Shown here: piece by piece, positions 10,564-62,407 of the stretch
Layout of the letters: each line of letters begins with the position of its first letter
How positions within the stretch are numbered: position 1 is the first letter of the stretch
NCBI GenBank assembly: GCA_964621085.1
Contig: CAZUKY010000004.1
Location: 1,266 to 65,265, forward strand
DNA length: 64,000 nt
Origin: an uncultured Gammaproteobacteria bacterium
GTDB lineage: Bacteria > Patescibacteriota > Patescibacteriia > JACQRZ01
Direction of reading: 5' to 3'
Translations under genes and position numbers: made by a program
The notes under the pieces: generated by a model
What the model was told of the DNA's origin: nothing
Databases searched by the model: none
What the model saw: only the letters and a program-made list of their open reading frames with translations

Positions 10564-11124
10564 ATGGCGAGAGGCCTTCAACAGGAAATGCCGTCACTGT
10601 CGTATCTTGGCACCGATCTCGGGCCGGATGCGAGTATCTGGATAACTCAGCAGGATCGAAATGCGCGACTGTACGGGAACAATACCCAGCGGCTCACGCA
10701 CTGCTACATCGGCAGCATTCCAGACGTGGTCGGCGAAGAGTACCTCGAACAACTAGTCCTTCGACTCATCGAGGTTGTGGATAAGAGCCCGCACGCGGCC
10801 ATTTCGGTCAGCTACGGCAGCCCGTTCGCGATTCACGTGCCAGTCCGGTGGATCCGCTCCCGCGTTCCGGGAACGTCCAACGAGTCGGCGCCGCGGCTGG
10901 AGGTGATCCTTCCTGTAAAGGAGCCGGGTGCCGTACCGCAATGGATGAACGCCATGCATCGGCGAACGCTCCGGCGGATAACCGACTTCGGGAGTCCCTT
11001 GAACGGATTCCTTACGGTGCCGATCGCGATCGATACGCTGGAGCCCCCATTGCGCGCGCGCAGACTCATGCAGTTCCTCATGGTTCCCGACTACACGGTG
11101 ATCTACCGCTCGGTTTCGTCGTAG
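10564..11124 (+). CDS. Hypothetical protein. A GC-rich opposite-strand gene inserted between atpG and atpD.
   Basis: 186 aa, GC-rich, with a GAGGAGG SD about 10 nt upstream of the ATG. A candidate promoter TAGACA-N16-TATCGT lies at 10493-10520 and an imperfect hairpin with a T-run follows at 11144-11178. Its composition is unlike the flanking atp genes. Confidence 0.5.
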   Translation: MARGLQQEMPSLSYLGTDLGPDASIWITQQDRNARLYGNNTQRLTHCYIGSIPDVVGEEYLEQLVLRLIEVVDKSPHAAISVSYGSPFAIHVPVRWIRSRVPGTSNESAPRLEVILPVKEPGAVPQWMNAMHRRTLRRITDFGSPLNGFLTVPIAIDTLEPPLRARRLMQFLMVPDYTVIYRSVSS

Positions 11125-11143
11125 GGACCCGGATCGCATGCAT

Positions 11144-11178: not shown

Positions 11179-11198
11179 GCTTCTTTTTGAAGAACAAC

Positions 11199-12074: not shown

Positions 12075-12106
12075 GTTCGAGTTTCCTAGCTGATTAGCTT
12101 GTCGTT

Positions 12107-13627
12107 TTAGCTAAAGAGTTTTTTGTATTCTGCGATCGCTGTTTTCAACCCGTTTTCCGTCTCTTCGCTCATGTCTCCGCTTGCGATGCCTTCAAGGACC
12201 CCAGATACTTGAGAGCGAAGGTAGTCAAGAAATCCGTCTTCGAATGCCTTAATGCGATCAAGCGGAATGTCATCCAGATGTCCGTTCACGCCAGCATAGA
12301 GCACGGCGACCTGTTGGGCAACCGGCACTGGCTGGTACTGGCCCTGCTTCAAGATCTCTGTCAGGCGCGCACCGCGATTGATCTGCTTCTGGGTCGCCTC
12401 GTCAAGATCGGAACCGAACTGCGCAAAGGCGGCGAGTTCGCGATACTGCGCAAGATCCAAGCGAAGCTTGCCGGCGACTTTTTTCATTGCCTTTGTCTGA
12501 GCTGCCGATCCCACGCGGGAAACCGACAAGCCGACGTTGAGCGCCGGGCGGATGCCCTGGTAAAACAGGTCTGTCTCAAGATAAATTTGTCCGTCAGTAA
12601 TCGAGATGACGTTTGTCGGAATATAAGCAGAGACATCGCCGGCCTGCGTCTCGATAATCGGCAGCGCAGTCAGCGATCCGCCGCCGAAATCCTTGCTTAG
12701 TTTTGCCGCGCGCTCCAAAAGGCGCGAGTGCAGGTAAAAAATGTCGCCCGGATACGCCTCGCGGCCCGGCGGGCGGCGCAGCAAGAGCGAGATCTGTCGG
12801 TACGCGACCGCGTGTTTGGAGAGGTCGTCGTAGACGATCAGCACGTCCTTGCCCTGATCCATGAAGTACTCGCCTATCGCGCAGCCGGCAAACGGCGCCA
12901 GATAGGAAAGGGATGCGGGATCCGACGCGCCAGCCAAAACGACGATCGTATACTCCATCGCTCCCTCCTGGTGTAATCGCGAGACGATTTTTGCGACCTT
13001 GGATTCTTTCTGTCCGACGGCAACGTAGATGCAGATAACCTCTTTGTCCGTTCCCTTAAACTGCCGCTGATTCAATATCGCATCGATGGCAACAGCGGTC
13101 TTTCCGGTCTGGCGGTCACCGATAACCAACTCACGCTGTCCGCGGCCGATCGGGATCATCGCATCGATCGCCTTGATTCCGGTCTGCAGCGGCTGGTGGA
13201 CGGACTGGCGCGTAATAACGCCCGGCGCGATTTTTTCAACCGGATAGAATGCCGCTGCTTTTATCTGCGCTCCGCCGTCAAGCGGTTTTCCCAGCGGATC
13301 TACTACGCGGCCGATGAGCCCATCGCCGACTGGCACTTCCAAGATGCGCCCTGTTCCTTTCACCAGATCTCCTTCTTTGATTTTTTCGAAATCTCCCAGA
13401 ATCATCGCGCCGACTGCGTCTTCTTCAAGGTTCAAGACAACGCCAAAAACGGTCTCGCCGTCATGTTCGCCAAAGTCAAGCATTTCCGATTGTCGCACAC
13501 GGGACAGTCCCGCAACTTTTGCGATGCCGTCGCCAACCTCGATAACATGGCCGACATCGCTTTTTTCGATATCCGCCTTGTAGGCTTCGAGGTTTTTCTG
13601 CAGTGATTCGATGAGGTAATTGGACAT
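12107..13627 (-). CDS. atpA: F0F1 ATP synthase subunit alpha
   Basis: 506 aa with a P-loop and typical alpha-subunit motifs. Confidence 0.95.
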
Positions 13628-17810: not shown

Positions 17811-19322
17811 CTAACTGAGGGGTGGAAACAGCGGTTCTCCTTTCATGATACCTCGGATCGGGATTCCGCGCCATTTCAAGGCTTCATCAAGATTTGCCGC
17901 ATGTTCTTCGCTCGGCATTCCGAGCGACGACCAAATTTTTTCTGCCGTATCCGGCAGGATGGGGGCTATCAGCACACTTACCTGCCGCACGCACTCCAGG
18001 AGTCCGGAAAGCACCGCCGCGCATTCGACCGGATTTTCCTTTGCCAGCACCCATGGCTTCGTTCGGTCGATATACCGATCGCCCCAACGGATAACATCCC
18101 AGATCGCCTCAAAGGCCTCATCGAGTGCATACTCCTCAAACCCCTTCTGCCACCGATCTGCTGCTACAGCAAGCATTTGCTTTATTTCATCTGCGTGTGC
18201 TGGCTCTGTGGCGGTCACGCCATCCGCCTTTGAAGCCATCGCAAGCGTGCGGCTGACGAAGTTGCCCAATCCTTTAGCAAGATCGGACTGGTACCGCTGC
18301 TCCACACGCTCGAAGGAAAAATCGCCATCGCCGCCGAACGGAATCTCGCGGAGCAGGAAGTAGCGCAATGCGTCACGGCCGTATTTTTGAACCAATTCCA
18401 CCGGATCGATGGCATTTCCCAACGACTTGCCGATTCGCTGCCCATCGATGGTAAAAAAACCATGCGCAAAAACGCGTTCGGGCAGCGGCAGACCTGCAGA
18501 CAGAAGCATCGCCGGCCATAACGCGCAATGAAATTTGATGATATCCTTGCCGATGATGTGGCACTGCGCAGGCCAGTGGCGCGCAAACATCTCCTCATCC
18601 CACCCAAAGCCGATGCCAGTCAGGTAATTGATGAGCGCATCAAACCAGACGTAAATCACCTGCGACGGATCGGTCGGAAGCGGTATTCCCCACTCCAGGC
18701 TTTGGCGCGTGATGCTGACATCTTCAAAATGATCGCGAATGTAATTCACAATCTCATTGCGCCGGCTTTGGGGCTGCACGAACTCCGGATGCGATTCGAT
18801 GTGCGCAAGCAGCGCGTCGCGGTACTTTGAGGCAGCAAAGAAGTAATTTTCCTCCTCGATCGTCTCCGGTTTCGTCTTATGGAACGGGCACGTCCCTTCT
18901 TCGGTCAGGTCGCTCTGGCGGACAAACGCCTCGCATCCTTTGCAGTAAAACCCCTGATACGTTCCCTTGTAGATGTCCCCGTGCGCATTGACGCGCTCAA
19001 AAAAGGCAGCGACACCTTTTTTGTGCCGCTCTTCAGTGGTGCGGATAAAATCGTTATGGCTCATGCCAAGCGACTCCCACGTGTGCTGCCACACGGCTGA
19101 CTGCATATCCAGATACGCCTGGATGTCTTTATACCCTGCCTTTTTCGCCGCCTCTACGTTCTTGAGACTATTCTCATCCGTTCCCGTCAAAAAGAAGGTG
19201 TCCTCGCCCTTGAGGCGGTGATAGCGCGCAAACGTATCGGCAATGACGGTCGAGTATGTATGCCCGATATGCGGCTTGTCATTGATGTAATAAATGGGGG
19301 TTGTGATGGTGTAGGTTTTCAT
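17811..19322 (-). CDS. metG: Methionine--tRNA ligase
   Basis: 503 aa with the HIGH motif (PHIGHTYS), a KMSKS-like GKSLGN, and zinc knuckle CPFHK. Confidence 0.95.
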   Translation of the reverse strand: MKTYTITTPIYYINDKPHIGHTYSTVIADTFARYHRLKGEDTFFLTGTDENSLKNVEAAKKAGYKDIQAYLDMQSAVWQHTWESLGMSHNDFIRTTEERHKKGVAAFFERVNAHGDIYKGTYQGFYCKGCEAFVRQSDLTEEGTCPFHKTKPETIEEENYFFAASKYRDALLAHIESHPEFVQPQSRRNEIVNYIRDHFEDVSITRQSLEWGIPLPTDPSQVIYVWFDALINYLTGIGFGWDEEMFARHWPAQCHIIGKDIIKFHCALWPAMLLSAGLPLPERVFAHGFFTIDGQRIGKSLGNAIDPVELVQKYGRDALRYFLLREIPFGGDGDFSFERVEQRYQSDLAKGLGNFVSRTLAMASKADGVTATEPAHADEIKQMLAVAADRWQKGFEEYALDEAFEAIWDVIRWGDRYIDRTKPWVLAKENPVECAAVLSGLLECVRQVSVLIAPILPDTAEKIWSSLGMPSEEHAANLDEALKWRGIPIRGIMKGEPLFPPLS

Positions 19323-19388
19323 ATTCCTTCATGCTACAAAAGATTGAAAATAAAAGGAAGGGGGGCTCTCACACCAGCTGCTTGATTA

Positions 19389-19423
19389 AAAAACTACCCC
19401 CCGGTTCCGCAGAACCGAGGGGT
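19389..19423 (-). terminator. Hairpin plus T-tract downstream of the 19466-20197 gene
   Basis: On the minus strand I read ccctcggttctgcggaaccgggggg followed by tagtttttt. Confidence 0.45.
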
Positions 19424-19465
19424 GGCCCAGTAACAGCTTTATCAGCTGAGATGGGCGGGGCCGAC

Positions 19466-20197
19466 TTACTTGCCGGCGAGGGCGGGCTGGCGGGTGTCCG
19501 TACCCGCGGCGGCCTTGCGCGGCTTGGCGGCGGCCTGCTTGGGGGCCTGGCCCGTCGTGCTGGCCGCGATCTGGTCGCTGCTGAAGTGCTTGCTCATGAG
19601 ATCGACGACGAACGCCGGGTTGACGTTGTGGATCGTGATGCTCATGTCCGCACCGCTGCCGACTTGGCCGTAGGTGCGCTCGAGGCGCTCGCGCTGGACT
19701 TCGAGGTTACCCTCGGTGCCATCAGCGGAGCGCTCCTTGGGCGCCTCCTTGACGCCGCAGTCCACCAGGAAGGCGTTGATCGTCTTGCGACCGCGACTGC
19801 CGTTGCCGTTGATCAGGGCGTACGCGGCGATCTCGGCGGTCTCGGGATTGCCCTTGCAGGCTTCCACGAGGCTGGGCCGGATGGTGCTGAAGCCGTCTTC
19901 CTTGACCTTGGTGTTGAGCTCGACCAGGTAGCTGACGGCTTTCTTGCTGCCGCTGCCGCCCTTGGTCTGCATGTGCGTGAGGGTGTTCTCGAGGACATCC
20001 TGGCGCTGCTTGCGCGCCGAGGTCTCGCCATCGCCCGTGATCTCGTGGAAGGCGATGCCTCCGCTGAACTCGCGGGCACTGTTCTTGACCGACTCGAGGT
20101 GCTTCCGAAGCTCGGCGACCATCTTGGGGTCGGCCGGGACGTCGGAGGTGGTGGCTCCCGTGGGGGTGGTAGCCGACAACCGATCGAGGACGTTCAT
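19466..20197 (-). CDS. Hypothetical protein, GC-rich (~65% GC) with a Lys/Ala-rich basic C-terminal tail
   Basis: 243 aa. There is an AAGGAG SD 10 nt before the ATG and the promoter TTGACG-N17-TAGACT at 20308-20336. The C-terminus reads APKQAAAKPRKAAAGTDTRQPALAGK. The overlapping plus-strand ORF 19331-20284 is a low-complexity antisense artefact. Confidence 0.6.
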   Translation of the reverse strand: MNVLDRLSATTPTGATTSDVPADPKMVAELRKHLESVKNSAREFSGGIAFHEITGDGETSARKQRQDVLENTLTHMQTKGGSGSKKAVSYLVELNTKVKEDGFSTIRPSLVEACKGNPETAEIAAYALINGNGSRGRKTINAFLVDCGVKEAPKERSADGTEGNLEVQRERLERTYGQVGSGADMSITIHNVNPAFVVDLMSKHFSSDQIAASTTGQAPKQAAAKPRKAAAGTDTRQPALAGK

Positions 20198-20307
20198 CTA
20201 AGAAGACTCCTTGTAAAACTCTCAGCCAACATAAGGCTGCGGGACTGTAATGTCGTGCACTATCTGCCTTGTTTTGAAACGTAGCAAAATTTTCGACGAC
20301 AAATGCG

Positions 20308-20336
20308 AGTCTACTCTACTATAAAAATCTCGTCAA
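20308..20336 (-). promoter_or_regulatory. Promoter for the 19466-20197 gene (TTGACG-N17-TAGACT)
   Basis: Read on the minus strand. Confidence 0.45.
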
Positions 20337-20396
20337 GCGCTCGACTGTGGATAATACGATTTTTATTCAAAATTAAAGGAAAAAAGTACAGATCTT

Positions 20397-20438
20397 AAAA
20401 AAAATTCGTCCCTGCGCCGTTACAGCACAGGGACGTTT
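20397..20438. terminator. Bidirectional hairpin terminator (cgtccctg-N13-cagggacg) downstream of the 496-aa gene
   Basis: An 8-bp GC-rich stem with a T-run on the plus side and an A-run (T-run on the minus strand) on the other side. Confidence 0.5.
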
Positions 20439-20445
20439 TCCACAA

Positions 20446-21936
20446 CTACTTTTTCGCGGCGCGCGCCTCACGCCTGCGCTGCCGGCGTTTTTCTACCTTT
20501 GTTCGCGCGGCGTAGGCGCGAAGAAACTCTTCAACCTCGCGAATCTCGTCGTCGCACAGCACAAATCCATCCAGGCTAATCTCGACCTCGGTCGTGTCAG
20601 TGCTCTTGAACGGCCAATCCAGCGGATACAGACCGAACTTTTCCCGAAGGTGCTTGTAGATGACGATGATCAGCTTTTCGACGAACCATGCGGCAATATC
20701 GGCATGCCGGCGGTCGTTGTCGAAGTCGAACTTCGGATACAGCCCGAGGAGGTACTCGAAGAACTCTTTCGGGGTTCGCGCCACAAACGGCGACTTGATC
20801 AGTCCGTTCGGCTGCGGCGTAAAGGCGTTCTGTCCCATCTGCTTCGCGAGATAGAAAAGCTTTGCCGCGAGCAACCCAAGATCAGCGCGTTTGACCCACT
20901 TGCGCAGCGGAACAAGCCAGAAGATCAGGAGATGCAAATCGAAGTTGTATCTCCGCAAATACGTCCGGAACGCCTTGCCCTCGGCCACTGATTTCAGGAT
21001 CCGATGACTTGCCCGCGGGGTGAGGTACTCCAGCCCATTGCAGTAAAACTTATCAGTGCCATAGAGCGTGCGATTGCGCGCATTCGAACGAATCGTTCCG
21101 TTAAGGCATGCTTGAAACGCAGCGGCTGTGTAATAGAGCCTGTCCTGCGTCAAGAGCGCCTGATTCATGTCCGAGTCCCGCGTTGGAAAGTATCGATCGA
21201 ATCCATCGAATATCCCCGCGGCGTGATTCAGTCGGAAGTCCTTGCGCCGCTCGATCCCGTCGACATCAACACGGCATGACCGTGCGACCTTCCACTTCGT
21301 CTCCTCGTCGACTTCCGCGCCGACGACTGCGTCGAAGTCAGCAAACGGAAGCTCCGCATCGAGAAGCCGGCGATCGAATTCCTTTGGAAACCGCCGCGCC
21401 ACCAGACGCTTCAAGACGTACCGAGAGCCGCCACCCTTGAGCGCGTACGCGTCTCGCGAAATGCCAAGGCGCTTTGATGGCCAACGAACGCCGTTTGCCT
21501 TCAGGTCTGCCCGCATCTCGTCATCAAGCTCGAAGACTTCCCAGTCGACCGGATCGCCCTTGTCCTCGGCGATGAAGTTCTCCGAGGTCATCTTTATCAC
21601 ATCCATGGTCCACTGAGAGACCGTCTCCTCATTTGCGGTACGGAAGTCGATGTCGTCAGCGCAATACTGATTGAAGACATCCTGCGCGACGACGAGTCCG
21701 GCCGCCTTGATCTCTACGATCACCGGCTCCGGAAGACGTTTCTCGGGATCGCTCTCCAGGACCGTTTTCTTCAATTCTTGAAAAAGGACGATAAAGAGTC
21801 TCCGGGGGTCTTTTGTGTCGCGAAGCGTCGTAACTAGTCGTTCGCGAAATTCCTGGAAGTTTGCTGACACCCTCTCTGCTTCACTCGGATCGAGCGTCAG
21901 CAACATGTTCTGGTCGGGCGTCTTTGTTTCTGACAC
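20446..21936 (-). CDS. Hypothetical 496-aa protein with a basic C-terminal tail. A possible G[GS]…DxD nucleotidyltransferase-like patch is uncertain.
   Basis: The promoter TTGACC-N17-TATACT lies at 21993-22021 and the ORF has a GTG start. It contains LKGGGSRYV…DFDAVVGAEVD. I recognise no known family. Confidence 0.55.
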   Translation of the reverse strand: MSETKTPDQNMLLTLDPSEAERVSANFQEFRERLVTTLRDTKDPRRLFIVLFQELKKTVLESDPEKRLPEPVIVEIKAAGLVVAQDVFNQYCADDIDFRTANEETVSQWTMDVIKMTSENFIAEDKGDPVDWEVFELDDEMRADLKANGVRWPSKRLGISRDAYALKGGGSRYVLKRLVARRFPKEFDRRLLDAELPFADFDAVVGAEVDEETKWKVARSCRVDVDGIERRKDFRLNHAAGIFDGFDRYFPTRDSDMNQALLTQDRLYYTAAAFQACLNGTIRSNARNRTLYGTDKFYCNGLEYLTPRASHRILKSVAEGKAFRTYLRRYNFDLHLLIFWLVPLRKWVKRADLGLLAAKLFYLAKQMGQNAFTPQPNGLIKSPFVARTPKEFFEYLLGLYPKFDFDNDRRHADIAAWFVEKLIIVIYKHLREKFGLYPLDWPFKSTDTTEVEISLDGFVLCDDEIREVEEFLRAYAARTKVEKRRQRRREARAAKK

Positions 21937-21992
21937 TCCTCTTCCCTCTTTCTGTGTCTATGCGGGACCCGTATGCCATCAGAAGGCGCTTG

Positions 21993-22021
21993 CAGTATAG
22001 GGAAATCGGTATTAATGGTCA
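21993..22021 (-). promoter_or_regulatory. Promoter of the 496-aa gene (TTGACC-N17-TATACT)
   Basis: Read on the minus strand. Confidence 0.5.
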
Positions 22022-22111
22022 AGGTATGTCTTTTGCAATATTGACGATTCGCAGTATGTATGAGAACGTGTGCGAGGCCATGGCCGAAAGAGAGGATACA
22101 GGCGGTGAAAA

Positions 22112-22632
22112 AATTGCCAACAAGCGGAGCCAACGCCGGCCTCTACGGCGAAATCTGGCTCCCAATGGCTCTGAGGAATGCTCGGTTCAACTGGTTTGAC
22201 ATAACAAAGACCGGCGATGTTCCGTCAGGCAATAGCGTCAGTAAGGCAAGTGACTTCCAGGATCATTTTCTTGCGACAGATCACTGGATCTGCGTGGAAT
22301 CGATCGCAACCCAACTCTTTCCAATCCAACTTCTGACATCGAGCGATGACAGGAAGATGCACTCGAAAAAAAAGCGACTTGCCTTCCGTCGCGGTGTCGT
22401 TTTTTTACGGCTTGACGGAGAGACGCTATATGCGGCAAGCCGCACCAACTACGATGTGCAGGCAGTTGAAGCGATCTGTCGGCGGGTCGAGAGTGTGATA
22501 CGGGACGCAGCCGCCGATCCCGGAAAATACATTACGCTCGAGCGAGCACGAGCGATCGAGGAGCGCTGGAAAGCGCTTTCGCGCGCCCAGCGAAAGGCAC
22601 TGTCTTTGCGAGATATCTATCTCCTCCCCTAA
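22112..22632 (+). CDS. Hypothetical protein. The ORF track gives 22060-22632; a GTG at 22112 has a better SD.
   Basis: About 173 aa, followed by a clean terminator at 22634-22665. Confidence 0.45.
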
Positions 22633-22633
22633 C

Positions 22634-22665
22634 CCCCGGCGCCACCGCTCCGGGGTTGATTTTTT
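22634..22665 (+). terminator. Rho-independent terminator
   Basis: ccccgg-N10-ccgggg followed by ttgatttttt. Confidence 0.6.
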
Positions 22666-22713
22666 ATAATGAGTTATTCTCGTCCTTACCACTGTCGTGT
22701 CCGCAAGATACGG

Positions 22714-22742
22714 TTGACATTGCCGCCTCTCCATCGTATACT
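22714..22742 (+). promoter_or_regulatory. Consensus sigma70-type promoter TTGACA-N17-TATACT
   Basis: ttgacattgccgcctctccatcgtatact. It drives the HTH gene. Confidence 0.6.
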
Positions 22743-22756
22743 CGTCCCGTCGCACC

Positions 22757-23940
22757 TTGACTTATTGTCACGAGGAGAGCTTGGAATTGCCTCGCATCAG
22801 ACGAAATCCACCGGATATCACTGCCACACTCAACGCGCGTCACGCGTCTTCCGAAGTGCCGCTCCATCGGAACAAGGCATGGCTTGAAGATATGCTCGCC
22901 CATGGCTATACGAACCAGGAAATGGCGCGGCAAGCCATGGTCGATCCGACAACGATGCCCACCAAATCGAAATAAACGGCATTCGCGACTCGCTTGAGAG
23001 AGCCAGATGCGAAATCGGAAAGTGGCTAGACAGCGCCGCACTTCTCTCTCTCATCATTTCAGAGGAAGAGTGGCGCACGCTCCGACTCTATTACGGGGAT
23101 GGCTCCACGGAATCATTTCACGACCTATCAGAAATAGCAGCTATCATCGGATATTCGCCGCAGAATATTCTTAAACTGCTCCACAAAGGTACGTGGCACG
23201 CTTGGATCGCGCATACGAACGGTCTTATTCCGCATGTGCCGCCGGCACTTCCTATACGTATCAAGGCTCTTGAAACGCAATACCTAAGCAAGGACACACT
23301 GGAAAAGGCGGTTACAGGTCAAAGTGCGTTTCTAAAGTACTATGAAAACCGCGGCATACCGCGCCGCGTCATGATCGACGCACTGAAAAAGCATGGCCTT
23401 GACCACCGCATCTCCTACGAGGAACTGGAGCTGTTGAGTATTCGTCAATGCCGTGTGATCGGCGAGTGGATTACAGCGCGTCGCGACGCGATCCGATCCG
23501 CGATTGAAACGTACGGCGAACCGGAGTGGAACGAACTTCTGATTCGTTTTTTCGGAGACGGATCGCGAAAATCACTCTCCCTCATCAACAACATTACGAA
23601 CTCTCAGAAAGGTCAGGTACTTTCACGAAAACGAATTATCAGAGCGTTGTGGATTGTCTGGTTGACCGGCAAATCGGATGATATGTGTCCTGAAATTTCG
23701 CGCATCGTCCGCGACATGACACGACGCTACTGCCGCGAGGATGTTCTGAACGAGTGCTGGGACTCAAGCGGCATCACTGCTCTCTCACATCGACTCGGAA
23801 TCCCGCAGGAAGTCATTCGATTTTGGATCCGCCTCCTCAATGTGGAACAGGATTCGCGTACGCGTCCTCGCGAAAGCCCTCTGGGCGCTCTCGTACGAAA
23901 GAAAGAAAAGGAACTTGCTTCCTATGTCACCGCGCAATGA
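22757..23940 (+). pseudogene. Multi-HTH regulatory protein (one segment is sigma-70 region-4-like) whose reading frame is split by a -1 frameshift around 22930-22975
   Basis: Frame A (22757-22975) ends …MVDPTTMPTKSK*. Frame A+2 is open from about 22885 to 23940 with no ATG/GTG/TTG before 23236. It encodes …LSLIISEEEWRTLRLYYGDGSTESFHDLSEIAAIIGYSPQNILKLLHKG (sigma region-4-like HTH) and later GITALSHRLGIPQEVIRFWIRLL. A probable TTG start is near 22787 with a GAGGAGAG SD. Confidence 0.4.
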
Positions 23941-24295
23941 ACATCCCCCGATGTCATTCGAGGAGGCGGCGTCAATACTCGGACAGTGCACGCGGCGAGA
24001 ACATGTTGCCGCACCCTTTGCGGACGACCGCACGATGCGGTGGGAAAATCATTATGGAGTTCTCATCGCTGACGGATACAAAAGCAAAATCTACAAAAAA
24101 GGAGAGCGGCCCCGCGGCGAGTTTGATCGCGTTACAATCTATCGGAACGAACGATCGCAGGCGCTCGGAACGCCTGCAATCCGCGCGGAATTTTTTGCGG
24201 ATGACGCACGCAAACTCTTTGAGTGCGGCACCGCGATGCGACATATTAGAAAGAGGACTCCTGATCAGGAGTCCTCTCGCCTGGCCCCAGACTGA
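23924..24295 (+). CDS. Hypothetical protein
   Basis: About 123 aa from ATG 23924 (MSPRNEHPPMSFEEAASILGQ…). It overlaps the end of the previous frame and is followed by a double hairpin. Confidence 0.4.
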   Translation: MSPRNEHPPMSFEEAASILGQCTRREHVAAPFADDRTMRWENHYGVLIADGYKSKIYKKGERPRGEFDRVTIYRNERSQALGTPAIRAEFFADDARKLFECGTAMRHIRKRTPDQESSRLAPD

Positions 24296-24318
24296 TCACT
24301 TCGGTCAGGGGCTTTTAT
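24254..24318 (+). terminator. Double hairpin: a perfect palindrome aggactcctgatcaggagtcct, then gcccc-agaCTGATCACTTCGGTCa-ggggc followed by ttttat
   Basis: The second loop shares the motif CTGATCAC(C)TTCGGTC with the terminator at 24729-24797. Confidence 0.5.
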
Positions 24319-24337
24319 GATCATGCCCATCCGCAAC

Positions 24338-24366
24338 TTGACATGCGCGCATACTATGATAGTCTT
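24338..24366 (+). promoter_or_regulatory. Candidate promoter TTGACA-N16-TAGTCT
   Basis: Upstream of the 24426 ORF. The -10 element is weak. Confidence 0.3.
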
Positions 24367-24425
24367 TGTCGCATGTCGTACCTTATTTGCGGCTTGGAAC
24401 GCAGTCCCGATCTTGAAGGAGAACC

Positions 24426-24713
24426 ATGGAACCAGTCCCGCCCCCTTCTGAACTCACTCGCCTTCTCAAGGCGGCTGTGCAGGCCTCTCGTTTCCTCTAT
24501 CCTGACCCCCGCAATGTCACCGAGGAATCGGTCAAGCGGTGGCTGTCAGAAATGTCGAACGAGCAGGCATACGACTTCTGGAAAAGCGACCGCCAGACAG
24601 CCTGTGATCTGTGTGTGATGGCGAGATACCCCATCGCCGCCTTCAAGCAGAAGGTGGAAACCCACGAGTTCCACCTGCAGCGCTTCGCGGCGCACCAGAA
24701 AACGGTCTCCTGA
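24426..24713 (+). CDS. Small hypothetical protein (95 aa), a paralogue of 24904-25254
   Basis: GGAG SD 7 nt before the ATG. It shares the motif [WY]L[SN][ED][ML]S[NP]EQA…D…[CA]…[AM][AG]RY with the next gene. Confidence 0.5.
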   Translation: MEPVPPPSELTRLLKAAVQASRFLYPDPRNVTEESVKRWLSEMSNEQAYDFWKSDRQTACDLCVMARYPIAAFKQKVETHEFHLQRFAAHQKTVS

Positions 24714-24728
24714 CGAACTGCGACCGTC

Positions 24729-24797
24729 TCGTGCCAGACACGAGCCGCACCATCCCCATGTCCCGGGCTGATCACCTTCGGTCCGGGGCATTTCTTT
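24729..24797 (+). terminator. Double hairpin: ctcgtg-ccagaca-cgag, then tgtcccgg-gCTGATCACCTTCGGTc-ccggggca followed by tttctttt
   Basis: It has the same loop motif as 24291-24307. Confidence 0.5.
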
Positions 24798-24811
24798 TCC
24801 ACAGAAGTGTC

Positions 24812-24840
24812 TTGACACGAGTTTACAGATGAGGTATACT
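24812..24840 (+). promoter_or_regulatory. Consensus promoter TTGACA-N17-TATACT
   Basis: ttgacacgagtttacagatgaggtatact. Confidence 0.6.
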
Positions 24841-24903
24841 CTATCTCATCTTCGCACACCGCACTCGCGCTCCGGCGCAGGTGCATGATTTGAGGTAAAG
24901 TGA

Positions 24904-25254
24904 GTGTCGACTGGCTCCTTGAACATCCTCCATCGCACCCCTACTACCCCTACTCGGCGCACATCAATTGCTCCCGAGGACCGCAGCGACTTGATCGCCG
25001 CAGTAGTGGAGATCACTGGCGTACATTTCCGCGGCAACACCACGCGACCGAAGGACATCCGCTCCTATCTCAATGACCTTTCCCCTGAGCAGGCCATGCA
25101 GCTCGCTGAGAAAGATGACATTCTCTTCAGGATCTGCGCCGCCGGCCGCTACGATGCTGCCAAGATCATCTCGCGCGCCGCCGTGTACAAGGCAAAGCAC
25201 GCGGTCACCAAGAAGCAACTCGAGGAGCTGGGCAAGGAGATGGCCACCGCCTAG
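24904..25254 (+). CDS. Small hypothetical protein (about 116 aa, start uncertain), a paralogue of 24426-24713
   Basis: GC-rich, followed by a terminator at 25335-25372. Confidence 0.5.
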   Translation: MSTGSLNILHRTPTTPTRRTSIAPEDRSDLIAAVVEITGVHFRGNTTRPKDIRSYLNDLSPEQAMQLAEKDDILFRICAAGRYDAAKIISRAAVYKAKHAVTKKQLEELGKEMATA

Positions 25255-25334
25255 CGAAGGATCGCAAAGTTCCGCAGAGGTGTGCCGACCTTCCAATCGG
25301 ACATCTGCGGAAATCCTGCTCAGGATGAGTGGGA

Positions 25335-25372
25335 GAGGCCCTCGGCCAGAAACTGGGGGCCTTCTTTTTTTA
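25335..25372 (+). terminator. Rho-independent terminator
   Basis: gaggccc-N15-gggcctt followed by cttttttttaaag. Confidence 0.55.
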
Positions 25373-25548: not shown

Positions 25549-27117
25549 CTATCTTCGTCCACTTCTCCGCTTTCTCTGAAAACTGACCGCAAACCGGTGT
25601 GCCTCATCGCGGATAGCGCGCAGAAGCTGCAGGGCCGAACTTTTCTGAGGAAGACGCAGCGGTGTGCGCACCCACGGCACGTAGATTTCCTCGAGACGTT
25701 TGGCAAGGCCGATGGCCGGCACAGCGAGCGAGAGACGACTTAAGGCGCGCATGGCGCTGTTGAGCTGGCCGCGGCCGCCGTCAATGACCAAAAGATCGGG
25801 CGCGTCTTCCTTCCCATCAAGGATCCGTGTCCCGTACCGTGTTACGATCTCGGCGATCATTGCGGTGTCATTGCTTCCCTCGACTGTTTTTCCGATGAAC
25901 TTCCGGTAGGCGCTCTTTTTCGGCTGGCCGTTTGCAAATACGACAAGGGAGCCGACATTTTGCGTTCCCGCCAGATGCGAGATATCGATGCACGCGATCG
26001 TGCGCGGCACTGTCTTTAAGCGAATAACGCGCTGAAGTTCGGAGAGCCGCCCTCCCCCGTCGCCGAGTTTCGCAGCAATGTTTTTACGCACGAGCTCGAT
26101 CAGCTTTTTTTTGATGCCTTTTTGCGGCACCGTAATAATGACGCTTCGCCCTGCAATATGAGTCAGATAGTCTTGTAAGGCAGATTGATCGGGAATTTTT
26201 TCAGGAATGACGACCTCATGGGGAATCTTTCCGGCACCGGAGTAATAGCGATGAATAAAATCGGCAAGCGCTTCGGTGCCGGACGCAACGAGCAGCTCGT
26301 CCAAATCAAATGAAAATTCTTTCCGACCGGAAATGATTCCGCGGTCAAAATGGAACAGCTCGACAAGTATCTCGCCGTCGGATCGCCCGTACGCGATCAC
26401 ATCCTGGTCGGTTCGCTTCGGTGCGGAAACTTTTTGCTCGTCAAGGAGGCGCAAGGCGGATAACTGGTCGCGATAGATTTTTGCCGCCTCGAAACGCTGC
26501 TGGGCGGCCGCCTCCTTCATCATTGTTTCAACATTACGCATCACGCTTTCGTAGTCGCCCTTGATAAATTTTTCCGCCTGGCGAATCTGCTCCAGATATT
26601 CACCCTGCGAGATAACGCCAATGCATGCCCCGCTGCAAAGGTTGAGATGATAGCGCGAGCAGGGACGTCCCTTTTGTTTTGAAGTACAGAAACGGAAAAT
26701 GCGATTGATGTTCTTCAGAATCGCGTTGCGCGCCGCGGCCGACGGGAAGGGACCATAATGCTTGGCGCCAGACGAAATCTTTCGTGCAATCACAAACCGC
26801 GGATACGGTTCTTTTGTCAGGGTAATATAGGCATACCGACCGGTTGACTGCAGATCGATGTTGTATTTTGGATGATATTTCCCGATTAGCTGCGCCTCAA
26901 GGATGAGCGCCTCTACCTCAGTATCGGTTACGATCGTCTCGATATCTGCGATGTTGGCAACAAGCGCTTGCGTTTTGAAATCCCGCGACTGCGGATAGGA
27001 GCTCACGCGTTTGCGGATGTTCTTTGCCTTGCCGACATAAATCACGGTGTCTTCTGCATTTTTCATGAGGTAGCACCCCGGGTGCGTTGGCAGTTTTTTG
27101 ATGAGTGAGTTGTCCAC
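25549..27117 (-). CDS. uvrC: Excinuclease ABC subunit C
   Basis: GIY-YIG N-terminus (GCYLMKNAEDTVIYVGKAKNIRKR). The ORF-track N-terminal extension to 27516 is an artefact of the antisense open frame. The likely start is GTG 27117 or ATG 27066. Confidence 0.85.
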   Translation of the reverse strand: MDNSLIKKLPTHPGCYLMKNAEDTVIYVGKAKNIRKRVSSYPQSRDFKTQALVANIADIETIVTDTEVEALILEAQLIGKYHPKYNIDLQSTGRYAYITLTKEPYPRFVIARKISSGAKHYGPFPSAAARNAILKNINRIFRFCTSKQKGRPCSRYHLNLCSGACIGVISQGEYLEQIRQAEKFIKGDYESVMRNVETMMKEAAAQQRFEAAKIYRDQLSALRLLDEQKVSAPKRTDQDVIAYGRSDGEILVELFHFDRGIISGRKEFSFDLDELLVASGTEALADFIHRYYSGAGKIPHEVVIPEKIPDQSALQDYLTHIAGRSVIITVPQKGIKKKLIELVRKNIAAKLGDGGGRLSELQRVIRLKTVPRTIACIDISHLAGTQNVGSLVVFANGQPKKSAYRKFIGKTVEGSNDTAMIAEIVTRYGTRILDGKEDAPDLLVIDGGRGQLNSAMRALSRLSLAVPAIGLAKRLEEIYVPWVRTPLRLPQKSSALQLLRAIRDEAHRFAVSFQRKRRSGRR

Positions 27118-27124
27118 AATCGTA

Positions 27125-27153
27125 TTGACAATTTTTCGAAAAAATCGTAGTAT
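27125..27153 (+). promoter_or_regulatory. Promoter TTGACA-N17-TAGTAT
   Basis: Upstream of the 27208 ORF, with an AGGAGAG SD. Confidence 0.45.
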
Positions 27154-27207
27154 GATCGAATCGTTCTTCCCGCGTTTTTTGTTGTAGCAAAGGAGAGATT
27201 CAGGCTC

Positions 27208-27507
27208 ATGACCGCCGATCCCCGTCTCGAACCCCCGAAAGCTGTCGCCACCACTGCTCCCTTCCCTCCGAAGGGACCGCATACCACCCAGCCCAATGAC
27301 TACCGCCTGCCCCAGCCGACCATCTCGCCCGACGAAGACTCGTTCGGGCAGCGACTCGCAAAGCTCGTCAAGGAGGAGTGGAATGCCATCCCGGCAGTCC
27401 AAGGCATCAAGCGACTCTGGGAGGTAAATCCATGGGGCGTGATCGGCATTGCCATCATCCTGACGATGGCCATAGTCGCTATCATCGGCTCCCTGCCCCC
27501 CAACTAG
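27208..27507 (+). CDS. Small Pro-rich protein with a C-terminal TM anchor (99 aa), GC-rich
   Basis: MTADPRLEPPKAVATTAPFPPKGPHTTQPNDYRLPQP…GVIGIAIILTMAIVAIIGSLPPN, with promoter, SD and terminator. Confidence 0.5.
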   Translation: MTADPRLEPPKAVATTAPFPPKGPHTTQPNDYRLPQPTISPDEDSFGQRLAKLVKEEWNAIPAVQGIKRLWEVNPWGVIGIAIILTMAIVAIIGSLPPN

Positions 27508-27525
27508 CACCAACATGAACGCGCC

Positions 27526-27563
27526 CGACCGCCTTCCTACCGGAGGGCGGTCGTTCTCATTTT
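27526..27563 (+). terminator. Rho-independent terminator
   Basis: gaccgcc-N13-ggcggtc followed by gttctcatttt. Confidence 0.5.
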
Positions 27564-44256: not shown

Positions 44257-45096
44257 ATGGACGAACCCTCGAGAACGAGGTCGCCGGTCGGGCGGCGGCC
44301 ACTCAGTTTCTCCGGCCCATCCCTCATCGTAGGGGGGGTCATCGGCGGCGCGCTCACGGCGGCATTACTGACACTCATCCCGCCCAAGCAGCCGGAGGTG
44401 CAGCAAGCGGCCGAACCGACCGCGCAACCCGCCCAGACCGAGCAGTTCCGCATGATGACCAAGTGGGTGTTCGGAGGCAAGAGCTTCGACAGCAACGACA
44501 AGCTCGAGTCCAGGAGGGCGCCCATCACGGTCGATCCCGTCTTCCGGCCCGAAGATGCGACGCCGTCGTACTTCGGCCAACTCCTCAACGCCTACGGCAA
44601 ACTCACCTATGCGCAGGTCACGTACCTGCTCAACGGCGAGATGCCCTACGACAACAAGGGAAAGACCGTCGGGAAGGTCAAGGCCGAGGTCGCCGCGGTG
44701 ATCCACTTCACCGCCGACCACAAAGGCGTAACCTACGGCGAGTCGCCGATCCGCGTCTTCGCACGCGGAGAAGACGGCGAGCCGAAAGCGATCCCGACCG
44801 CGTACCACTGGAAGGACCGGTTCACGGTCCTGGTCACCGGAATGGACGGCCGCCTGCCGGAGTACCATAAGTTCGCGGCCTACAGCGTCGTGAACAACCG
44901 GGAAATCCGCAGGTCGTACATCGACGTAGATCGGTGCACGATCCAGGACAAGACCTTCGTCCTCATGGGACCGGACGGCAAGCCGGTTACCGACCCGGTG
45001 GAGCGCCGCAAGGCGTGGTTCGAGGCCCGCAAGGTCACGCGCCGCGTCCCAGTCGCCTCCTCCGAGGACACCGATCGGGTGGCTACGCGAAAGTAG
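44257..45096 (+). CDS. Hypothetical exported or membrane-anchored protein, GC-rich
   Basis: 279 aa with an N-terminal TM or signal segment (LIVGGVIGGALTAALLTLIPP). It has its own promoter, SD and terminator. Confidence 0.55.
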   Translation: MDEPSRTRSPVGRRPLSFSGPSLIVGGVIGGALTAALLTLIPPKQPEVQQAAEPTAQPAQTEQFRMMTKWVFGGKSFDSNDKLESRRAPITVDPVFRPEDATPSYFGQLLNAYGKLTYAQVTYLLNGEMPYDNKGKTVGKVKAEVAAVIHFTADHKGVTYGESPIRVFARGEDGEPKAIPTAYHWKDRFTVLVTGMDGRLPEYHKFAAYSVVNNREIRRSYIDVDRCTIQDKTFVLMGPDGKPVTDPVERRKAWFEARKVTRRVPVASSEDTDRVATRK

Positions 45097-45207: not shown

Positions 45208-46221
45208 TTATCCGTTCGAGCGGAGTGCGGGCTGTTTTGCGACCGCCTCCTTCTTGACGCGCCGCACCGTCTTTGTGCGAGCCGCCTCGACGCCCTTTTT
45301 CGCTGCAGTCGTAACCGTCTTCTCGATACCTTGCTTGCGTCTCCTCCCCGACTCTTTCTTGACCGCCAGCTCTCGAGCCATCGCCGGCCGGGAGATCTGC
45401 CAGTGGAGCACCTCTGCATCCGTATACGCGGGCACACAGCGCCAGCACGCGAACAGATGCTCCAGGATGATCTGTCGGGTCTCATTCGTCGCCCGGGCGA
45501 CCCAGTCATGGATCCGCCCGAGAGGAAGCGCGGCGAGCCGGCGCTTCACCTCGGCGGCGTAGCGCAGTCGCAGCGACTTGCTCATCTTGGAGCAGTGGTC
45601 CAGTTCCATGAAGGCATCATGCCCAACCTCCGAAAGGCACGCCTCGAGTCGCCGCTCGATCTTCTCATGAAGCTTCGGAAAAGCCTTTGGCCTCATCACC
45701 TGATGAGCGCGTGCCAGTGCGTCTCCTTTCGCGTATCTCACCTTGGAGTCGATACGCTTGAACAGGAGGTCGCGCTCGGTCATGTCCCACGAGGCCGGAA
45801 CCGCGCCCTCGAGCATCAGGATGAGCTGGTAGAGCTCGCACGCCTTCGTGTCGCTCAGCGCGCGGGTCCGCAGCACGCTCTTCATCCATGGGACGGCCGC
45901 CTCCTCGAACAGATCGGCCGCAAACGAGGGCGATATGTGCGCCATGCGCCGCACAAAGAGGATCTTGAGCAGATTGCGATGCGAAAAGACGCAAGGGCGC
46001 TTGGGCAACTGCACGCGCACATACGCGTCATAGTCGAGCCCTTCGATCAGGTTCAGCGCATGCAGGAGGATCCTGCACTGCACTGCCGGGTCGCTGCGGA
46101 CCGCGACCGGAACGCCGTGCCACCGACGCTCGAAATCGATGATCGCGCCCGGATTGCACGCGAGCCCGACCGCGATTCGGTAGTGAAGAGACGGCAAGGT
46201 CCGTACAAGAGGCAGTCTCAC
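45208..46221 (-). CDS. Hypothetical protein, GC-rich, with a Lys/Ala-rich basic C-terminal tail
   Basis: 337 aa with a GTG start and an AGGAG SD. The C-terminus reads KKESGRRRKQGIEKTVTTAAKKGVEAARTKTVRRVKKEAVAKQPALRSNG. The overlapping plus-strand ORF 45190-46239 is an antisense artefact. Confidence 0.5.
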   Translation of the reverse strand: MRLPLVRTLPSLHYRIAVGLACNPGAIIDFERRWHGVPVAVRSDPAVQCRILLHALNLIEGLDYDAYVRVQLPKRPCVFSHRNLLKILFVRRMAHISPSFAADLFEEAAVPWMKSVLRTRALSDTKACELYQLILMLEGAVPASWDMTERDLLFKRIDSKVRYAKGDALARAHQVMRPKAFPKLHEKIERRLEACLSEVGHDAFMELDHCSKMSKSLRLRYAAEVKRRLAALPLGRIHDWVARATNETRQIILEHLFACWRCVPAYTDAEVLHWQISRPAMARELAVKKESGRRRKQGIEKTVTTAAKKGVEAARTKTVRRVKKEAVAKQPALRSNG

Positions 46222-58643: not shown

Positions 58644-58991
58644 ATGTACCGCGACACACTCAGCAAGAGGGGTCTGCGCGCCAAGATCTTCACGGCAATC
58701 TCGAGTGGCGACGATGACCGGGAGCAGGCGCTCCTGCTCAAGCTCGAAAACGAGCAGGCTATCGTCCGGCTCCTACCGCGCCGCCAGATCCGGCTGCACA
58801 CCAACGTCATCGTGCAGAGCAGCTTCTTCCGACCGGGCAGCGGCGTCATCGGCCAACAGTCGGGTCGCAAGATCGATGTGGTCATCGACGACCTGACCGA
58901 ACGGATGTGGGCCGAGTGGCAGGCGTACCTTGCCGAGTACGACGCGAAGCCGGAAGGCTCCTTCCTCAAGCTCCGCCTCCTGGCGAGTTGA
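58644..58991 (+). CDS. Hypothetical protein (115 aa), GC-rich
   Basis: It has its own promoter and a terminator at 59033-59071. Confidence 0.45.
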   Translation: MYRDTLSKRGLRAKIFTAISSGDDDREQALLLKLENEQAIVRLLPRRQIRLHTNVIVQSSFFRPGSGVIGQQSGRKIDVVIDDLTERMWAEWQAYLAEYDAKPEGSFLKLRLLAS

Positions 58992-59169: not shown

Positions 59170-60057
59170 ATGAAGGCATCTTGGGAGAGGACGCGCTGTT
59201 TGGAGGACGCGCGCCGGAGCGCTCAGGCGATCATGGATCGCTTCGGCCTTCACCCTGGCGAGATCAAGATCGCACTGCAGCTCGGCACGGGCTGGGGCGA
59301 TGCGGTCACTTGGATCGACGAGATGGATTTCGCCGACGCGGGTCTCATCTTCGACTACGGCGGCGGACTGTCGTATCCGGCGCCTGCGATGCAAAACCAT
59401 GCGCTCAAGATCGTGTTGTGCAAGCTTGGCGACCAGAAGGTCATCGCACTGAGGGGCCGGATTCACTTCCATCAGACATGGAACCTGGAGACGCAACTCG
59501 TCTTCCGGAAGCAGATCGAGATGCTCATTGCCCTCGGCGTGCGGACCCTCATCCTCACCTGCGCGGCCGGGGGCAGCAATACCACCACGGATCGCGGTGC
59601 GGTCTACTTGGTCCGAAGCTTTTGCACGCTCGGCGCCCGCCCGCTGCTCTTCCTACAGGGAGAGGGCAACCCGAACCATCACGATGTTCTCGATCCGAAA
59701 CTCATCCGCGCCGTCAAGGATCAGGCATTTGAGGCAGCGCCGTACCGGGTACTGACGACCCGCTCCTTCTACGTCTACCACGGACCGCAATTCGAGGATA
59801 AAGAGTGCGACAAGCGCATCATCCACGAGGTCTACGGCATCGACCTGGTCGGCATGAGCCTGTGGGCCGAGACCATGGTCGCGTCACTCCACGCGGACAA
59901 GGGCGTGAAGGTCGTGCCACTGGCCTTCGTGACAAACCGCGCAAAAGATTCGCTCAACACGAGCGAACATGTCGCCGAGATTACAAAGTCCCAGGAACAG
60001 CTCGCCGCATTTCTTCCAAAAGTGGTCGAGGCCTGTTCCGCAACGGTGCCTGCGTAA
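59170..60057 (+). CDS. Purine nucleoside phosphorylase / MTA phosphorylase family (PNP_UDP_1)
   Basis: 295 aa. LRGRIHFHQTWNLETQLVFRKQIEMLIALGVRTLILTCAAGGSN matches QGRFHMYEGY…V[TS]NAAGGLN, and VGMSLWAETMVA matches VGMSTVPEV. GC-rich. Confidence 0.7.
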   Translation: MKASWERTRCLEDARRSAQAIMDRFGLHPGEIKIALQLGTGWGDAVTWIDEMDFADAGLIFDYGGGLSYPAPAMQNHALKIVLCKLGDQKVIALRGRIHFHQTWNLETQLVFRKQIEMLIALGVRTLILTCAAGGSNTTTDRGAVYLVRSFCTLGARPLLFLQGEGNPNHHDVLDPKLIRAVKDQAFEAAPYRVLTTRSFYVYHGPQFEDKECDKRIIHEVYGIDLVGMSLWAETMVASLHADKGVKVVPLAFVTNRAKDSLNTSEHVAEITKSQEQLAAFLPKVVEACSATVPA

Positions 60058-62104: not shown

Positions 62105-62407
62105 CTAAAAAATGCACATCTGGCGCACAATCCGGTCGTAGCGCGCGCGGCAGGCAGCCAGCTCGGCATCGATGCGGTACAGCGTGCGCTCATCAAGCGC
62201 AACGCGCGCCATCGTCCGCTCGACAAACGCCAGGCGAACACGAAGCGCGAAAAGCCAGAAGCGCGTAATCAAACCGGGCGCATACCGTTCCAGACCGTCG
62301 ATGTCCCGAACCAACCGGACGTACTCATCGCAAAATTGCACCGGCTGATACCGCGCCTCATATTGTGCCGTCTGATATGCGATCGGCATATGCGTTTCAC
62401 TTCCCAT
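62105..62407 (-). CDS. Hypothetical protein (100 aa)
   Basis: The promoter TTGACA-N16-TATTGT lies at 62430-62457. Confidence 0.4.
   Translation of the reverse strand: MGSETHMPIAYQTAQYEARYQPVQFCDEYVRLVRDIDGLERYAPGLITRFWLFALRVRLAFVERTMARVALDERTLYRIDAELAACRARYDRIVRQMCIF

Follow-up and report, generated by a model that had tools for sequence, protein, structure and literature searches.

The focal gene and the cassettes listed with it

The window analysed here, a 64,000-nucleotide stretch of contig CAZUKY010000004.1 with a mean GC content of about 53%, carries a set of short, GC-rich genes set between the housekeeping genes of a reduced Patescibacteria (Candidate Phyla Radiation, CPR) bacterium with a tiny genome. 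The gene under study, 19466-20197, is one of ten such genes singled out in a preliminary description of the window, and all ten open reading frames (ORFs) are present where that description placed them. They can most safely be described as autonomous, insulated orphan or accessory cassettes, led by a Shine-Dalgarno (SD) sequence and inserted among core operons that lack one. The closest relatives of the methionyl-tRNA synthetase (MetRS), at 65% identity, are found in Candidatus Uhrbacteria and other Patescibacteria metagenome-assembled genomes (MAGs), a placement that fits the earlier guess of a reduced symbiont; the organism is probably a symbiont. The housekeeping genes of the window, almost all on the minus strand, are those for MetRS, UvrA, UvrB, UvrC, TypA, XseA and XseB, an F-type ATP synthase operon, a PilB-like ATPase and Nuo/Mrp-like membrane subunits. 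The focal unit and its immediate surroundings comprise:

19396..19423, minus strand: intrinsic terminator of the focal gene, 12-bp stem with 8 GC pairs and a T-run, just upstream of metG
19466..20197, minus strand: focal coding sequence, 243 aa, strict orphan, GC 0.664, isoelectric point (pI) 8.8
20207..20212, minus strand: SD sequence AAGGAG, 9 nt ahead of the ATG
20308..20336, minus strand: sigma-70-like promoter, TTGACG-17-TAGACT, score 9/12
20407..20435, minus strand: strong terminator of the upstream orphan 20446-21936, insulating the focal unit on its 5' side
19396..25363: 6-kb orphan block between uvrC and metG, holding the focal gene and six further ORFs, namely 20446-21936 (minus), 22060-22632 (plus), 23236-23940 (plus), about 23924-24295 (plus), 24426-24713 (plus) and 24904-25254 (plus)

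The promoter position implies a leader of about 105 nt, and the surrounding spacer is AT-rich. No Rfam match with E < 0.1 was found for this leader and its folding z is -0.5, on which grounds a regulatory RNA was ruled out. Neither a word-indexed search covering 5.8 billion clustered proteins nor a complete HMMER run against 1.84 billion representatives gave a homologue of the focal protein; a single 60-aa metagenome match (locus L084) is spurious, because the site holds no ORF. Structures predicted with AlphaFold2 from the single sequences of the focal protein and 45208-46221 were unusable (predicted local distance difference test, pLDDT, 40 and 44). The focal protein has no transmembrane segment and its C-terminus is short and Ala/Lys/Pro-rich. 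It can be regarded as the extreme case of the set, with a product expected to be a soluble, mildly basic, mostly helical protein of 243 aa. From composition alone, one can propose a soluble, helical and basic protein whose flexible Ala/Lys tail may contact nucleic acid, an assignment that we consider quite improbable.

It is extremely unlikely that the ORFs are spurious readings of GC-rich non-coding DNA, or that high-GC fragments were joined into a chimeric metagenome assembly. The window is a MAG contig, GC-rich DNA gives long chance ORFs, opposite-strand shadow ORFs are present, and coding scores are weak for 10564-11124 and 62105-62407. However, a period-3 pattern in the GC content of the second and third codon positions (GC2, 0.41-0.48; GC3, 0.85-0.91) singles out one frame, the SD sequences are correctly spaced, the cassette edges fall at promoters and terminators rather than at arbitrary breakpoints, and the same pattern is seen in unrelated MAGs. 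Both junctions of the focal gene are reproducible, since an independent Logan assembly spans them and is identical to 18133-20983 at 100%. The strand chosen in the preliminary description is upheld at every locus by the pattern of GC1 (first codon position), GC2 and GC3, the overlapping opposite-strand ORFs being shadows.

GC by codon position was taken from a crude gene table, in which the 45 other genes with 80 or more codons have a mean GC3 of 0.612 (standard deviation 0.084). Codon-usage distance from the core was scored as a z against a length-matched null that keeps each protein sequence. The ten listed genes, hereafter named by their first coordinate where this is sufficient, are:

10564..11124, plus strand: 186-aa orphan, antisense within the atp operon; SD AGGAGG, terminator 11153-11179; GC3 0.738; host-like codon usage, z = 0.8, not atypical
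19466..20197, minus strand: focal gene; GC3 0.906 (z = 3.5); codon-usage z = 12.1, the highest in the window
24426..24713, plus strand: 95-aa orphan; SD AAGGAG, terminator 24758-24791; GC3 0.729; codon-usage z = 2.1, not atypical
24904..25254, plus strand: 116-aa orphan; promoter TTGACA-17-TATACT (24812-24840), terminator 25335-25363; GC3 0.761; codon-usage z = 4.7
27208..27507, plus strand: 99-aa orphan, transmembrane helix at its C-terminus; located between uvrA and uvrC, the true start of the latter being at about 27135; promoter TTGACA-17-TAGTAT (27125-27153), SD AAGGAG, terminator 27526-27553; GC3 0.760; codon-usage z = 3.6
44257..45096, plus strand: 279-aa orphan anchored by an N-terminal transmembrane segment (residues 20-43); promoter TTGACA-17-TATTTT (44192-44220), 8-nt SD AGGAGGTG, terminator 45109-45139; GC3 0.868; codon-usage z = 7.2
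45208..46221, minus strand: 337-aa orphan candidate, pI 10.1, convergent with 44257; SD AAGGAG, terminator 45161-45185; GC3 0.784; codon-usage z = 5.2
58644..58991, plus strand: 115-aa orphan candidate; SD AGGAG, terminator 59034-59063; GC3 0.853; codon-usage z = 4.0
59170..60057, plus strand: divergent purine-nucleoside phosphorylase (PF01048, E = 8e-16; NF006054); GC3 0.780; codon-usage z = 4.6
62105..62407, minus strand: 100-aa orphan; promoter TTGACA-16-TATTGT, no SD, terminator 62072-62086; GC3 0.683, with 9 other genes higher; codon-usage z = -0.1, not atypical

A near-consensus promoter, a strong SD and a hairpin terminator had been claimed for each gene, and this anatomy is found in most of them. 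Promoter-like sites scoring at least 9/12 precede six of the ten, those of 24904, 27208, 44257 and 62105 reaching at least 10/12; in three more (24426, 58644, 59170) a TTGAC(A/G) -35 is followed by a weaker -10, and no convincing pair was seen for 45208. Hairpins with a T-run follow nine genes and SD sequences precede nine, 62105 being without SD. Among the ten strongest terminators in the 39 kb scanned, eight follow listed genes and the ninth follows the orphan 20446-21936. The genes do not all sit singly, as had been stated: six of them form the adjacent pairs 24426/24904, 44257/45208 and 58644/59170, and the focal gene is part of the orphan block at 19.4-25.5 kb. On this reading, each unit consists of a sigma-70-type promoter in an AT-rich spacer, a canonical SD, a GC-rich ORF and a strong intrinsic terminator, placed between conserved core genes and mostly on the opposite strand, the core genes lying in operons without SD signal. 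The terminators may hold antisense transcription back from the neighbouring essential genes.

These genes are unrelated, lineage-restricted orphan or accessory genes and not one family, as they had been called. No pairs emerged among the listed proteins from all-against-all BLASTP (E <= 0.1) and phmmer (E <= 1), the sole exception to their unrelatedness being 24426 and 24904, which are weak paralogues (24% identity over 66 aa, pairwise E = 1e-3). Only 59170 can be assigned to a family; Pfam, NCBIfam and PHROGs gave nothing for the other nine proteins, and no orphan function beyond that of the phosphorylase was assigned by homology. No match was obtained for seven of the ten listed proteins in a PADLOC scan, for the orphans in a sequence search of the PDB, or for 45208 in a tblastn search of plasmids, and four IMG/VR viral-contig scans gave no relatives of the orphans. 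The search with 44257 returned only itself. Eight of the listed proteins occur in the protein collection that was searched, every one of them as a singleton.

Composition, initiation signals and absence from relatives

The listed genes had been put at 60-66% GC by eye. The top end of this range holds, the measured values being 0.587-0.664; the lower end overlaps housekeeping genes, which reach 0.57-0.59 (typA 0.587, atpD 0.580, atpC 0.592). Measured per gene, GC3 is not uniform over the window; uniform values would have spoken against the preliminary description. Strong GC3 outliers are only three, namely the focal gene, 44257 and 58644. Five listed genes exceed the others marginally (TypA has 0.744 and the PilB-like gene 0.754), the GC3 of 10564 and of 24426 is in each case surpassed by two other genes, and the composition of 62105 is ordinary. 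Codon usage is atypical in seven of the ten (z >= 3.6).

At its fourfold-degenerate third positions the focal gene has C 0.71, G 0.22, T 0.05 and A 0.02, with a preference for GCC (0.69), CCC (0.70), CTC (0.67) and AGC (0.63). Core gene sets of presumed high and of presumed low expression both favour GCG, CCG, CTG and TCG, unlike the focal gene. The direction of codon bias is alike in three genes, which favour CTC, GTC, ATC, TTC and AAG, and the fourfold-site C:G ratios vary among the listed genes from 0.33 to 0.78. GC2 of the window orphans with GC3 of 0.78-0.91 lies 0.01 to 0.08 above that of the host.

Core and listed genes also divide in translation initiation. With an SD match defined as at least 5 nt of AAGGAGGTGA at -21 to -4 and chance estimated from shuffles, a match was found in 9 of the 10 listed genes (0.63 expected) and in 4 of the 45 other genes (2.9 expected). 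AtpA, AtpD, TypA, UvrA and MetG, whose starts are well supported, have no match. The start regions of core and listed genes also differ in GC content, both over the first 33 nt (0.45 against 0.57) and over the upstream 30 nt (0.40 against 0.50), and in mean folding energy (-9.3 against -13.4 kcal/mol; Mann-Whitney p = 0.003). The AT-rich, weakly folded core starts would be consistent with SD-independent initiation; at the GC-rich, more structured starts of the orphan genes, the SD may be functional and needed.

The same association can be traced outside the window. Related loci (L002-L081, mostly Patescibacteria) are SD-poor, a match preceding 0-25% of their genes, whereas the Thermotogota and Spirochaete loci of the same comparison reach 45-53%. 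Core genes of the related loci, like those of the window, show no SD excess over chance, and their start regions are AT-rich and weakly folded. Among 803 genes from SD-poor loci, the window excluded, SD frequency was 0.09 for a GC3 excess over the locus median of up to 0.05, 0.17 for an excess of 0.05-0.15, and 0.53 for an excess above 0.15 (17 genes in 12 loci). Displaced-window and reverse-complement controls gave 0.05-0.07 and a scrambled purine motif 0.04-0.18, and low-GC3 outliers showed no SD enrichment (1 of 20). The SD poverty of the Patescibacteria loci agrees with the loss of the anti-SD reported for part of the Parcubacteria, the motif being detectable in only 48% of Parcubacteria 16S rRNAs (PMC9297842).

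The accessory status of the listed genes is borne out by relatives that lack them at the three comparable positions, i.e., the atp operon, the region upstream of metG and the uvrA-uvrC interval; syntenic homologues throughout the lineage, which would have argued against acquisition, were not found at these sites. Between the atp operon and metG, tatD and cvpA included, locus L002 and the window are collinear. The gap between atpG and atpD is 14-114 bp in six relatives and 767 bp in the window. Upstream of metG, L002 has dus and then uvrC, while L004 has an rsmI-like gene and a hypothetical gene; no homologue of the focal gene or of 20446-21936 was found there in either. The uvrA-uvrC interval of L004 holds genes different from 27208. 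It can be inferred that insertion of the units postdates the split from the sampled relatives. Mobile-element cassettes were considered and rejected, with no shared flanking direct or inverted repeats, no integrase and only a doubtful tRNA call.

Similar genes can be found in other loci, where crude calling of about 950 genes gave eleven high-GC3 outliers. Ten of these were scanned, of which eight belong to no Pfam family; those named in their source are annotated as hypothetical, and no similarity of their proteins to each other or to the window orphans was found. Locus L017, from a Patescibacteria genome, carries a divergent orphan pair (5319-6476 and 6784-7860) of 67-69% GC and GC3 0.89 in a background of about 40% GC (host about 43%). 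Its spacer has 33% GC and two TTGAC(A/T)-17-TATTTT promoters, and a strong terminator is present. GC1 is also shifted in these orphans, to 0.66-0.69, and all three codon positions are shifted. The products encoded at 5258-7860 are a protein of 385 aa and one of 358 aa that contains poly-Pro and an IPT/TIG domain and has a transmembrane helix at its C-terminus. In the collinear genomes of L007 (10844-13767) and L008 (14936-17868), purA and a GC-rich orphan form a syntenic pair, the orphan having GC1 of 0.65-0.68 and GC3 of 0.70-0.82 at a locus GC of 0.46-0.50; the orphan is 27% identical between the two, PurA 60% and MetRS 69%. An SD of 5-8 nt precedes purA in both. L043 encodes at 10577-13129 an 850-aa, GC3-elevated protein with a major-vault-protein shoulder and repeat domains and an 8-nt SD upstream; its MAG is labelled Gammaproteobacteria and its MetRS groups with Patescibacteria.

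Individual loci and neighbouring genes

Two of the ten listed loci, 24904 and 27208, are mis-annotated in the public record. In place of 24904-25254, the public annotation has a minus-strand ORF, 24964-25296 (110 aa, Leu/Gly/Arg-rich, GC1 0.77), which looks like a shadow of the plus-strand gene. The gene 27208-27507 is masked by an over-long uvrC call (25549-27516, 655 aa), and its exact protein is absent from the protein collection searched. Homology to the UvrC of relatives begins at about 27135, some 127 codons into the call, and the annotated 127-aa extension is therefore false. A reading of 27136-27516 as a UvrC N-terminal extension was ruled out on this ground and because the extension translates like a shadow ORF. 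A palindrome with the core ATTTTTCGAAAAAT at 27119-27156 spans the promoter spacer of 27208, overlaps the probable uvrC start and may be an operator.

Several further details concern single units. The 767-bp insertion between atpG and atpD (10432-11198) carries 10564-11124 with its own promoter, SD and terminator, and atpD has apparently gained a promoter-like site at 10494-10466 on the minus strand. The terminator hairpins in 23924-24311 and 24758-24791 have the loop TGATCAC(C)TTCG in common, which suggests an old tandem duplication of a gene-plus-terminator cassette in the 24426/24904 region. The plus-strand ORF ending at 24295 (about 123 aa) is likelier than the minus-strand ORF 23972-24244 picked by the crude caller. 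The -10 of the promoter of 62105-62407 (region 62407-62446) ends 12 nt ahead of the ATG, unlike in the other listed genes, which implies a nearly leaderless mRNA.

Histone-H1-like, Lys/Ala-rich C-terminal tails had been reported for 19466-20197, 45208-46221 and a tiny ORF at 40256-40434 (here 40255-40434). Basic stretches are indeed present in all three; their likeness to H1 was overstated, being compositional resemblance only, and they are not specific to the set. The last 30 aa of the focal protein (TTGQAPKQAAAKPRKAAAGTDTRQPALAGK) hold 4 Lys, 2 Arg, 9 Ala and 3 Pro, which makes a short, mild tail. The tail of 45208 has 18 Lys/Arg (10 Lys, 8 Arg) in its last 55 aa without a repeat unit, and is predicted as one long helix with a pLDDT of about 70. 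The third ORF, on the minus strand, encodes 59 Lys/Arg/Ala-rich residues (32% Lys/Arg, 20% Ala, pI 11.8). It is not GC-rich, however, with a GC3 of 0.48, and shares 11 nt with the next gene. Equally basic ends can be found on the core proteins UvrB and UvrC, the tail of UvrC being kept in L004, and on the orphan 20446-21936; since UvrB and UvrC have them too, such tails were rejected as a common hallmark. No H1, Hc1 or Hc2 model matches, and Pfam gave no hit.

Low-GC3 genes (0.39-0.48) are grouped at 32282-40434, where codon usage deviates in the AT direction as much as that of the focal gene does in its own; z is about 9.7 in the low-GC3 direction for 32282-34765 and 36956-38740. They encode an 827-aa helicase, a TSP3-repeat protein, a 492-aa orphan and the 59-aa basic protein, and uvrB, of normal composition, is interleaved among them. 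The 3' part of the helicase gene (32282-34765) has a 234-nt unit repeated three times in tandem at 32305-33072 (81-83% identical). Bacterial TSP3 repeats lie in a C-terminal region common to three large proteins, 36956-38740, 50441-51889 and 52556-55660, which are probably surface proteins; over 205 aa of this region, 50441 and 52556 are 68% identical. The ARAGORN call of a tRNA-Ser (anticodon TGA) at 31989-32061 is only 73 nt long, too short for the long variable arm of tRNA-Ser, and Rfam at its gathering threshold gives no tRNA there; the call is doubtful, or the tRNA unusual. At the left end, positions 1-6663, together with L085:8856-10415, represent a Nuo- or membrane-bound-hydrogenase-like cluster in a CPR genome, with NuoB-like, NuoH-like and two antiporter-type subunits and a GC3 of about 0.50, lower than that of the core. 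Its fused 30-kDa/49-kDa subunit sits just outside the window, and no ribosomal genes were found in the 1.2 kb past that end.

Origin of the cassettes and comparison with known systems

The observation behind the preliminary description is thus largely real, but it is heterogeneous and describes no single family. The origin proposed there, piecemeal acquisition of one family from a single high-GC host or partner with later adaptation of the promoters, is very unlikely. An organism of the CPR that is probably a symbiont, the common direction of codon bias in three genes and the presence of canonical SD sequences within an SD-poor host would agree with it. Nevertheless, the genes show no sequence similarity to each other, no homologue is found among about 15 billion proteins that include well-sampled high-GC phyla, the fourfold C:G ratios differ and the flanks are AT-rich. 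The lack of homologues for the two strongest outliers and the host-like GC1 also speak against import from one high-GC donor. The phosphorylase 59170 points away from such a donor as well: its best matches are 31-36% identical, and the sole organism-named one is a hypothetical protein in a non-syntenic context of a Ca. Uhrbacteria MAG, where it is also GC3-elevated (+0.12), so that this gene looks lineage-typical rather than imported.

For the atypical subset, horizontal acquisition from a GC-richer, SD-using source is the leading reading, to which we give an even chance. The subset takes in the focal gene together with 44257 and 58644; 45208, 24904 and 27208 probably belong to it as well. Foreign origin is favoured because of atypical composition, codon preferences that are not those of the core, absence from relatives and the occurrence of SD sequences in an SD-poor host; the GC1 shift of the L017 orphans was counted for it too.

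A number of observations weigh against acquisition. GC1 of the window orphans is 0.61-0.65, near the host value of about 0.60. Lawrence-Ochman regressions reportedly place the donor of a gene with GC3 of 0.91 at about 72% GC, with a GC1 of about 0.72 where 0.61 is observed. A fresh import from a high-GC genome should carry GC-rich flanks; here the excess is confined to the ORFs, the 50-bp profile falling from 0.64 to 0.46 at the start codon, the flanks having about 0.40-0.52 GC and the step coinciding with start and stop codons. Lys outnumbers Arg in the focal protein, and the codon usage of 10564, 24426 and 62105 is not atypical. There is also a mild native GC3 gradient, ATP-synthase genes and the phosphorylase being about 0.11 over the median in relatives too. 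The L007/L008 orphans seem to have maintained their GC content, since 27% identity means saturated synonymous sites, yet both are GC-rich. Finally, no donor homologue was found for any orphan, large-scale searches having covered the focal protein and 44257, so that transfer is deduced from composition and absence only.

Much of this would suit native, fast-evolving, lineage-specific genes in which selection or a gene-specific process keeps GC-rich, C-ending codons without any donor, an alternative that we judge less likely, though a serious competitor of acquisition. The cause could be very strong expression, stability of the mRNA or, at recombining accessory loci, GC-biased gene conversion, and the strong promoter, SD and terminator would suit high, insulated expression. 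The ORF-precise GC excess between AT-rich, native flanks, host-like GC1, the retention of GC in the syntenic L007/L008 orphan and the elevated phosphorylase and ATP-synthase genes of relatives all agree with it. In addition, the preference for C over T at twofold sites is stronger in high- than in low-expression core genes, an axis that the orphans extend, and the codon shifts of the focal gene, 44257 and 58644 correlate with the high-minus-low shift of the core (Spearman 0.40-0.57). On the other hand, the fourfold-box preferences of the focal gene are opposite or unrelated to that shift: CCG gains and CTC and AGC lose in the high-expression core set, whereas the focal gene uses CCC, CTC and AGC. 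Highly expressed proteins are usually conserved, yet the focal gene and 44257 have no homologue anywhere, and the GC1 of 0.66-0.69 of the L017 orphans in a host of about 43% GC is accompanied by a shifted amino-acid composition.

Beyond the acquisition favoured for the atypical subset, a broader and rather less probable possibility is that these units exemplify a recurrent class of fast-evolving, GC-rich, SD-dependent orphan cassettes in SD-less Patescibacteria, each with its own promoter and terminator and with actively maintained composition. If true, this would amount to a second translation or expression regime, perhaps one kept for proteins of symbiosis or host interaction. A large part of bacterial diversity falls within the CPR/Patescibacteria, in which most lineage-specific genes still lack an explanation. 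Were such cassettes general in SD-poor members, they would offer a sequence signature for recently gained or specially expressed genes, i.e., candidate host-interaction factors, expose gene-calling errors and provide a natural test of how ribosomes that mostly ignore the SD deal with SD-bearing mRNAs. Should they reflect only ordinary horizontal transfer, their value would be limited to a cleaner annotation of the present MAG.

With regard to known systems, histone-H1-like proteins or tails in bacteria include chlamydial Hc1/Hc2, the C-terminal tail of actinobacterial HupB, and AlgP. Lys/Ala/Pro-rich basic stretches are common to these and to the present proteins, at the C-terminus of 19466 and 45208 and throughout 40255-40434; the tails here differ in being about 25-55 aa long, with 13-18% Lys and no AKKA/PAKK array. 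Horizontally acquired ORFans deviate in GC3 and codon usage, are patchily distributed, lack homologues and occupy variable spots between conserved genes. The listed genes resemble these ORFans of the Lawrence and Ochman type in all such respects, but here the anomaly is ORF-confined, GC1 is host-like and high GC persists in L007/L008 after deep divergence; for these three reasons classical amelioration fits poorly.

Phage morons are single added genes with a GC content unlike that of their neighbours and with their own promoter and terminator (Hendrix/Juhala; reviewed in PMC3594210). Single additions, deviant GC and autonomous signals are likewise found here; however, morons lie between prophage genes, whereas the present cassettes lie between chromosomal housekeeping genes (metG, uvrA, uvrC, atpG, atpD, xseA, typA), and no phage genes, integrase or PHROG matches were found near them. 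As for initiation, the core genes, with no SD above chance, resemble the SD-poor systems of Bacteroidetes and part of the Parcubacteria; this genome's own 16S rRNA lies outside the window. The difference from those systems is the minority of GC-rich orphans with strong canonical SD sequences, and what is new here is this split between core genes and GC-rich orphans, together with the rise of SD frequency with GC3 excess.

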